Assembly: GCA_963840855.1 (NCBI GenBank)
Contig: CAWJBB010000010.1
Span: 32,348-96,347 of the forward strand
From: an uncultured delta proteobacterium
Lineage (GTDB): Bacteria; Desulfobacterota; Binatia; UBA9968
Direction: 5' to 3'
DNA: 64,000 nt
The notes beneath the pieces were generated by a model, which saw only the letters and a list, made by a program, of their open reading frames with translations, was not told the DNA's origin and did no database searches. Position numbers and translations under genes: made by a program. This document shows, one piece after another, positions 20,576 through 22,036 of the stretch; position 1 is the first letter of the stretch; each line of letters opens with the position of its first letter.

Positions 20576-22036
20576 GTGATTGAGATGCCTGGAGAAGAAA
20601 TTAAACTTGAGCGCATTGAGGAATTTCTCTGGGAGATTCCTAAGCAGGGTGGAATGAGAGTGCCGGGGCGTATCTACGCCACGGAAAAGCTCATGTCCGG
20701 TTTAAAATCGGACAATAGTTTACGGCAAGTAATGAACGTCGCCCATCTGCCGGGTATCGTCGGATATTCTCTCGCTATGCCCGATATTCATTGGGGCTAT
20801 GGTTTTCCCATCGGCGGTGTGGCAGCGCTGAACATCGACGGCGGTGTGATTTCCCCCGGCGGCGTGGGCTACGATATTAATTGAGGGGTGCGCCTGGTGA
20901 AGACCAGTTTGGTCTTCGAAGATGTAAAGGACCGGCTAGGCCGCATCGTCGATACGATTTTTTCGCTTATTCCCTCCGGCGTCGGCTCCGAAGGCGCGAT
21001 CCCGAAACTTTCCAAGCAAGAAGAAAAGCGGCTTTTGCGCGACGGCGCAGGCTGGGCGGTGAACGCAGGCTACGGGCGCGACGAAGACCTCTCCTACATG
21101 GAAGAGGGTGGACGGTTGGCGGCGGCGGACGCCGATCTCGTCAGCGAGCGCGCTCTGGAACGCGGCCTTAAGCAGGTCGGGACTCTCGGATCGGGCAATC
21201 ATTTTCTTGAGATCGGCCGCGTTGAAGAAATATATCTGCCCCAAACGGCGGACGCGCTGGGCCTGTTCGCGGGCGAGATCGTCGTGTTGATCCACACCGG
21301 TTCGCGGGGCTTGGGTTACCAGGTTTGCGAGGACTCGCTCAAGATCATGAGCAAAGCGATGGCCAATTACCGCATCGAGCTGCCCGACAGGCAACTTGCC
21401 TGTGCGCCGATTCGATCACCGGAAGGGCAAGATTATCTCGCGTCGATGGCCGCGGCCGCGAATTATGCCTGGGCCAATCGCCAGGTCATCATGAGCCAAG
21501 CCGAGAAGGCATTCATGCAAGCGCTAGGCATCGGACCGAAGGAGCTAGGCTTCTCTCTCATCTACGATGTTTGCCACAACATCGCGAAGATCGAGGAACA
21601 TGTTGTCGATGGCAAGAAGCAGCTGCTTTGCGTGCATCGCAAAGGCGCAACGCGCGCCTTCGCTCCGGGCCACCCGCAAATCCCCGCGGCATATCAAGAC
21701 ATCGGCCAGCCGGTGCTCATACCCGGCGATATGGGGCGCTATTCGTATCTGCTCGTCGGCGCTGATGCCGCCATGGAAAAAACCTTTGGCAGCACCTGTC
21801 ACGGCGCCGGCAGAATGATGAGCCGCGCGCAATCGAAGAAGCAGAGCCAGGGCCTCAACATCGACCAGGAGATGGCGCGACGCGGAGTCATCGCCCGTTA
21901 TCAAGGGCGCGGCACCATGGCCGAGGAGATGCCCCACGCCTACAAAGACGTCGCCGACGTCGTCGAGACCATGGACCTCGCCGGCATTTCGAAACGGGTA
22001 GCGCGCTTTCGGCCGGTCGGCGTCGTCAAAGGCTGA
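20576..22036 (+). CDS. rtcB: RtcB RNA 3'-phosphate/5'-OH ligase (archaeal/eukaryote-type); single reading frame with in-frame TGA at the catalytic Cys, candidate selenoprotein
   Basis: ORFs 20576-20884 and 20888-22036 are in the same frame, separated only by TGA 20882-20884 plus [15 protein letters not shown]. Motifs AMPDIH, GSGNHF, HTGSRG, CHN, HRKGATR, PGDMG, CHGAGR and VVKG are intact. Confidence 0.95.
20899..20917 (+). promoter_or_regulatory. Putative bacterial SECIS element
   Basis: GAAGACCA-GTT-TGGTCTTC: perfect 8-bp stem, extendable by a U-G pair; loop begins with GU, 22 nt after the in-frame UGA. Confidence 0.75.

Follow-up and report, generated by a model that had tools for sequence, protein, structure and literature searches.

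A probable SECIS hairpin behind an in-frame UGA codon in a bacterial rtcB gene

The rtcB gene located at 20585..22036 (+ strand) in the 64-kb stretch of DNA that was analysed here (the window) contains an in-frame UGA codon at 20882..20884 (+ strand), and a small hairpin lies at 20899-20917, directly downstream of that codon. The question raised by this locus is whether the UGA is read as selenocysteine (Sec), and whether the hairpin is the SECIS element that would direct this reading. From the comparisons described below, it is likely, with a probability of roughly 0.85, that the hairpin is the bacterial SECIS of rtcB, and the RtcB encoded here is very probably a selenium-containing enzyme.

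The coding sequence can start at ATG 20585 or GTG 20576 and has its own stop codon, a TGA, at 22034-22036 (+ strand). As rtcB ends in TGA too, it can be excluded that the organism generally reads TGA as sense. Translation through the in-frame UGA (20576/20585-22036) gives a protein of 486 residues, and the frame was found to be open over 520 codons. In a profile search the protein matched Pfam PF01139 over residues 51-486 at 567 bits (cut-off 27), and it could be aligned over its full length, at 580 bits, with the RtcB structures of P. horikoshii and T. thermophilus, including 4dwr and 1uc2. The full-length profile match and the match to solved structures place the protein in the RtcB family. 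In the alignment, the UGA is residue 103 and falls opposite Cys98 of the P. horikoshii RtcB chain, and the Asp of the GYDIN motif (chain position 95) is retained. The features of a Sec/Cys pair that mark a selenoprotein gene were all found, namely a UGA facing a conserved Cys, recurrence of the UGA and an open frame beyond it.

The gene directly upstream (20052..20480, + strand) is an ORF that encodes an archease (Pfam PF01951, 127.7 bits), archease being the usual activator of RtcB. The spacer between the archease gene and rtcB was found to be mostly filled by a 75-nt imperfect inverted repeat (20485-20559) with 32-nt arms that are 78% complementary and lie 11 nt apart, and no second copy of this repeat was present in the window.

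In the full-length alignment and in the archease partner upstream, the protein resembles the Cys-type RtcBs (P. horikoshii PH1602, T. thermophilus TTHA1785 and human RTCB). However, in the Cys-type proteins both metals are bridged by Cys98, whereas a UGA (predicted Sec) occupies that position here. In P. horikoshii RtcB, according to part of PMC9745838, Cys98 coordinates the metals at both sites and forms a bridge between the two manganese ions; none of the ligation steps is carried out when it is replaced by alanine, and one crystal contained it in an oxidised, sulfonic acid form. The bridging cysteine of RtcB is prone to oxidation, and the human form requires a dedicated protecting enzyme (parts of PMC9745838 and PMC10630183). 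In protein collections the gene examined here is represented by a fragment of 379 residues, with GTG 20897, within the hairpin, as its start, and two further 99%-identical fragments, encoded on other contigs, begin just past the UGA site. Full-length Cys forms account for 117 of the best 120 relatives listed in these collections.

An earlier note on this sequence had described a perfect 8-bp stem separated from the UGA by 14 nt, with a loop that starts 22 nt past the codon, and this layout was borne out. The TGA at 20882-20884 is followed by a 14-nt spacer (20885..20898), the 5' arm of the stem, GAAGACCA (20899..20906), an apical GUU loop (20907..20909) and the 3' arm, TGGTCTTC / UGGUCUUC (20910..20917), all on the + strand, so that the hairpin reads GAAGACCA-GTT-TGGTCTTC in the DNA and 22 nt separate the loop G (base 23) from the UGA. 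The last base of the spacer, U 20898, is able to pair with G 20918 and would form a ninth pair. The 8-bp stem and 3-nt loop were also drawn by RNAfold, at -9.5 kcal/mol for the 19 nt alone and -11.0 kcal/mol when one flanking base per side was included. RNAalifold, applied to 19 sequences, found the same helix independently and added the ninth U-G pair. With the U of the UGA as position 1, none of the 19 sequences with this type of hairpin deviated from G26 and U27 in the loop. A second small helix was drawn by RNAalifold at 20873-20893 (alignment columns 3-23), with the UGA in its loop; it is formed by highly conserved codons and includes zero double changes.

The bSECIS model, as set out in part of PMC13188914, specifies an apical loop of 3-9 nt on an upper stem of 4-16 bp (Fig. 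2 legend), a G at loop position 1 or 2, mostly followed by G or U and flanked by paired bases, and a minimum free energy that does not exceed -7.5 kcal/mol. Agreement with the SECIS consensus, which had been proposed from the window alone, was confirmed for all four constraints given in that part of the source: the 3-nt GUU loop is carried on 8 perfect pairs (9 with the U-G pair), the G is at loop position 1 and is followed by U in an A-GUU-U pattern, the spacing is 22 nt, and the energy of the 19 nt is -9.5 kcal/mol. The rtcB hairpin is thus like the model, as far as it is laid out there, in its in-frame place 3' of a Sec-UGA, loop, stem, spacing and minimum free energy, but its loop is a minimal GUU triloop.

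An Rfam scan of 20500-21200, with E values up to 10, returned no family matching the hairpin, and the sole result for this region, a snoRNA match with an E value of 1.8, was rejected as a chance match. The SECIS of E. coli fdhF has a GGUC-type apical loop and a bulged U in the upper stem. Both fdhF and the rtcB gene have a hairpin with an apical G-U directly after the UGA; however, the combination of a GGUC-type loop and a bulged U was not found in the window, where the loop is GUU and the stem uninterrupted, and the loop G is at position 26 rather than at position 23 as in fdhF. A C-GGUCU-G apex, which resembles the GGUC loop of fdhF, is used by 6 of the 19 relatives that share this type of rtcB hairpin and also occurs in an fdnG-type gene of the same genome.

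A protein search of 61 related genomes identified 26 close orthologs with 75-97% identity, of which 13 have one in-frame TGA and 13 have none, the frames being open over 400-520 codons. All 26 differ at one codon, which is TGA in the former group and TGC or TGT in the latter, and the peptide encoded after this codon is nearly identical in TGA and Cys orthologs. The hairpin, which should be kept in UGA orthologs if it is a SECIS, was kept in all 13 as GAAGACC[A/G]GU[U/C]UGGUCUU[C/U]. Two of these orthologs are from unpublished genomes (L027 in G015 and L029 in G009), and the UGA count is 11/11 without them. At this position, 8 or more stem pairs topped by a GU loop were present in 13/13 UGA orthologs versus 4/13 Cys orthologs.

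The comparison was extended using a fixed criterion, namely a contiguous stem of at least 6 pairs and a loop of 3-6 nt that has GU at the first or second place and starts 19-40 nt from the U of the UGA. Hairpins of this description were found in 13/13 close TGA genes and 4/13 close Cys genes and, among the matches listed, in 2/3 distant TGA genes and 1/77 distant Cys genes. The third distant TGA gene, L130, has a different, bulged stem at the same place, with G26-U27.

The full hairpin was found in five Cys genes (L023, L025, L032, L033 and L057), indicating that it is not strictly tied to UGA. The gene selA was above the cut-off in all four genomes whose Cys gene keeps the full hairpin. The earlier note had further argued that the presence of the hairpin rules out a sequencing error at the UGA, and this argument failed, as L023, a same-genus gene with 97% identity, has TGC together with an identical hairpin; a TGC-to-TGA error is therefore not excludable by the hairpin alone. 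On the evidence of sequence comparison, the UGA is real, as it recurs in 12 other genomes and the two 99%-identical products start after the site.

The genome was also examined for the Sec machinery and for other UGA genes. The selA gene (616 bits), selB and a UGA-containing selD (383 bits), which retains its own UGA, were found side by side on contig C1. In the selD UGA gene (L021 10380-10546, minus strand), GUGCAA-GUU-UUGCAC is located 33 nt after the UGA. The apex of this hairpin, A-GUU-U, is the same as that of the rtcB hairpin. Downstream of its UGA, the fdnG-type formate dehydrogenase gene has the hairpin GUCCCC-GGUCU-GGGGAC, whose loop occupies positions 22-26.

The selB gene (L021 11959-12510 and 10581-11948, minus strand; C1:38613-40500) contains one extra base near L021 11985, which breaks it into two parts. 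The fdnG-type gene (C40:300376-303688) has a classical in-frame TGA and is spread over three reading frames, corresponding to two apparent frameshifts. Searches of this assembly, which is 94% complete, with Rfam, ARAGORN and blastn did not reveal a tRNA-Sec. The best match to Rfam RF01852, at 43 bits, was below the 47-bit cut-off and is a tRNA-Ser, ARAGORN at default settings found no tRNA-Sec in the genome, seven candidates that it returned at a relaxed threshold were rejected because of poor stems, and a blastn search of the genome with the tRNA-Sec of a relative returned nothing.

These findings bear on the alternative that the hairpin is a SECIS by origin but belongs to a system that is decaying here, such that the UGA is now a stop codon, rtcB a fresh pseudogene and the hairpin a relic. 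Decay would fit the split selB, the three frames of the fdnG-type gene in a genome where rpoB and rpoC are each a single open frame, the missing tRNA-Sec, and the TGC already present in the same-genus genome G001. However, the extra selB base was absent, and the frame restored, in contigs of 3/3 other runs with coverage there (from three studies, ~99% alike; run X1 has none), the rtcB frame is still open through the UGA over its 520 codons, and the UGA of selD is still present. In addition, the tRNA-Sec of the relatives is often located on very short contigs, so that a bin that comprises 93 contigs and is 94% complete could easily lack such a gene. The frameshifts may be due to assembly error or to recent decay or mutation, and loss of the system is considered unlikely to account for this locus.

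Among the 61 related genomes, selA was over its cut-off in 57 and tRNA-Sec in 47, and the corresponding numbers for the 13 genomes with a TGA rtcB were 12 and 11. Six RNA runs contained only 5-9% of the selB words.

A codon alignment of 14 TGA rows (the 13 close genes and L053) with 402 informative codons gave a mean synonymous-codon entropy of 1.148 bits, and the six-codon window at +5..+10 after the UGA had the lowest value in the gene (0.164 bits, rank 1 of 397), followed by the window at +6..+11 (rank 2). The third-position entropies of codons +5..+11 were 0, 0, 0, 0, 0, 0 and 0.37 in the TGA rows, where the gene mean is 1.15, versus 0.39-1.3 in the Cys rows, where the gene mean is 1.21. 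Similarly, the per-nucleotide entropy of the 19-nt hairpin ranked 5 of 1382 in the TGA rows (0.14 vs 0.548), whereas the same 19 nt ranked 1115 of 1382 in the 13 Cys rows of the clade (0.735 vs 0.585). As each comparison was made inside the same sequences, the constraint is not explained by relatedness. The SECIS reading is therefore supported by the fit to the bSECIS model, by the presence of the hairpin in 13/13 UGA orthologs and by a synonymous constraint that is seen only where the UGA is present.

In a DNA tree that was built without the columns of the site and the hairpin, and in which the root, and with it the direction of changes, was not set, the 27 close rows formed one starred clade with TGA and Cys rows interspersed. 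At least 6 changes of state between TGA and Cys are needed among the 27 orthologs, and a single Cys clade was rejected by the AU test (p 3.9e-8, for a group named after inspection of the tree). All 8 pairs were present in 14/14 TGA rows. Among the Cys rows, the four with the shortest path to a TGA row (L023, L025, L032 and L033; 0.04-0.30) also had 8/8 pairs and the GU loop, whereas the nine farther Cys rows kept 2-7 pairs and the loop GU was lost in 7 of them. The number of pairs kept fell with tree distance (Spearman rho -0.58, p 0.037, for rows that are related). This is the pattern of hairpin decay that relaxed selection after a Sec-to-Cys change predicts, and the four close Cys genes that keep the hairpin fit recent Sec-to-Cys changes, as expected.

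The same four genes, in which the hairpin accompanies a Cys codon, would also fit an RNA structure unrelated to Sec, for example one that slows the ribosome while the metal site folds or one that controls mRNA decay. A further candidate for such a role is the distant Cys gene L057 (63% protein identity), which carries CCGGACCA-GUU-UGGUCCGG with the same apex and a stem in which three pairs are altered on both sides yet still pair. We read L057 as a recent convert of a related lineage, the nearest sequences compared being L209 and L217; at the same time, no other gene argues more strongly for a role of the hairpin apart from Sec. However, a role of this kind does not predict that the constraint is gone from the Cys rows of the clade (rank 1115 versus rank 5) or that the hairpin is missing in 76/77 distant Cys genes among the matches listed, nor does it account for the SECIS geometry and for an apex that is that of the selD and fdnG hairpins in the same genome. 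A function independent of Sec is thus regarded as very improbable.

Pairing was examined over 9 pairs in 19 TGA sequences that carry this type of hairpin, of which 14 came from genomes and 5 from metagenomes. Bases were able to pair in 98.8% of the 171 cells, compared with 32-54% when the partners were slid. All 14 one-sided changes still pair, 11 of them as G-U, which favours a sense-strand RNA over a DNA palindrome. Double compensatory changes were found at two pairs, both in one metagenome sequence (L209), and covariation is therefore thin, this hairpin type being conserved mostly by plain sequence identity.

Perfect Watson-Crick stems of at least 8 bp with a loop of 3-8 nt occur at only 10 places on the + strand of the 64-kb window, so the chance of finding one in the slot 16-37 nt after a named codon is ~0.003. 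The number of 8-bp hairpins is itself not above chance (11 observed versus 2-16, mean 7.35, in 20 shuffles). Folding energy was considered as evidence for the hairpin and set aside as not significant, as the energy of the 60-nt fold is ordinary (z = -1.1; 31/200 shuffles fold equally well) and 27% of the other 39-nt windows at the same locus, in a GC-rich gene, fold at least as stably. As energy and hairpin number are both ordinary, the case rests on place, shape and conservation.

The stem had also been said to use two uncommon codons, AGT and TTG. With codon usage taken from 800 long ORFs of the genome, this was correct for AGT (8.8% of Ser codons) but not for TTG, which makes up 19.5% of Leu codons and is third of six. 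Given the codon usage of the genome, precisely these synonymous codons would be used for K-T-S-L-V-F with a joint probability of ~8e-4. That the hairpin might be a by-product of the conserved peptide VKTSLVF and codon habits, or a protein-bound DNA palindrome, with no RNA role in either case, would suit a peptide conserved in UGA and Cys genes alike and the shuffle-like number of 8-bp hairpins in the window, but is scarcely credible given that so improbable a synonymous choice is fixed in 14 rows with other silent sites free, and that the changes to G-U point to RNA.

The SECIS reading was also considered for UGA-containing rtcB genes in other lineages. The exact pattern GYDIN-UGA-G was found in at least 120 stretches of metagenome contigs, of which 80 were examined. 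Among the matches listed, 71 of these 80 are rtcB with a frame that is open past the UGA, and the 9 dropped loci comprise 8 without rtcB peptide context after the TGA and 1 that was too short downstream. The 71 loci yielded 70 distinct downstream sequences among the matches listed. Within this listed set, the hairpin type of the window was present in 5/70, most of the 70 have a different stem, CGCUCA-GGU[C/U]-UGAGC, at the same place, and ~14/70 have a different hairpin farther downstream; G26 was found in 49/70 and U27 in 43/70.

For the more frequent CGCUCA-GGUC-UGAGC type, one fixed structure was applied to 50 metagenome sequences; 86.3% of cells paired, compared with 26-41% after sliding, and sub-variants of this type occur in another register. 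Covariation in this type was not above that in shuffles, as its 2 double-change pairs were matched by 194/500 shuffles. The 39 nt after the codon had a median fold of -12.2 kcal/mol in 84 TGA sequences versus -6.95 kcal/mol in 86 Cys sequences, and the within-locus fold ranks of the two groups differed with a Mann-Whitney p of 2e-14, for rows that are related.

A third group of UGA-rtcB sequences, from metagenome loci (L146, L157, L158, L168, L170, L175, L177, L200, L203, L222 and L223) has no hairpin at nt 18-36. In this group, a stem of ~8-9 bp carries an A-rich loop of 9 nt, which begins at about nt 31 and is without the loop G of the bSECIS model.

If the established bacterial pathway operates at this locus, a ribosome at UGA 20882 would be met by SelB with GTP and Sec-tRNA(Sec), bound to the apical G-U 22 nt downstream. 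Selenocysteine would then be delivered instead of the chain being released, and the full-length RtcB would have Sec in place of the metal-bridging cysteine. It is from this pathway that we infer SelB binding, Sec insertion and the activity of a Sec enzyme.

A full-text literature search found no natural Sec-RtcB, the only Sec form found being an engineered P. horikoshii U98 enzyme. According to part of PMC4150793, this enzyme, with Sec at position 98, was made via UAG and EF-Tu, without a SECIS. It has Sec at the same residue but is artificial, as far as that part of the source describes it, whereas the form found here is natural, predicted to be SECIS-directed and kept in many lineages. In a 2026 review of the prokaryotic selenoproteome (PMC13188914), the word 'ligase' occurs 0 times in the main text and rtcB is outside the family table, in the part of the source available. 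RtcB, RNA ligase, splicing ligase and PF01139 likewise occur 0 times in four supplement files of deep-Sep and in part of the supplement of BSepDB, and 'selen' occurs 0 times in the available part of a 2023 review of RtcB (PMC10630183). Sec-RtcB would thus be a selenoprotein family that is unlisted in the catalogues searched, and the hairpin is a known kind of element.

It is possible, though this is a tentative suggestion, that these genes represent an uncatalogued RtcB selenoprotein family in which the two catalytic metals are bridged by selenium instead of sulphur, and that the flips between UGA and UGC or UGU, together with a SECIS that outlasts them for a time, allow the locus to switch reversibly between Sec and Cys according to selenium supply or to oxidative damage at the sensitive residue in the active site. 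If this is true, a Cys gene that still bears the hairpin would be one base change from Sec.

In nearly all of the selenoproteins known, the role of Sec is in redox chemistry. In this RNA ligase, which acts in repair and tRNA splicing, Sec would instead form the bridge between the two manganese ions. With a verified SECIS, rtcB genes that appear to be split or broken would become full-length. With UGA and Cys forms both occurring among orthologs of 75-97% identity, these genes would provide a natural series for examining the benefit of Sec to an enzyme, and the same series would also show how quickly a SECIS decays after the need for it has gone.
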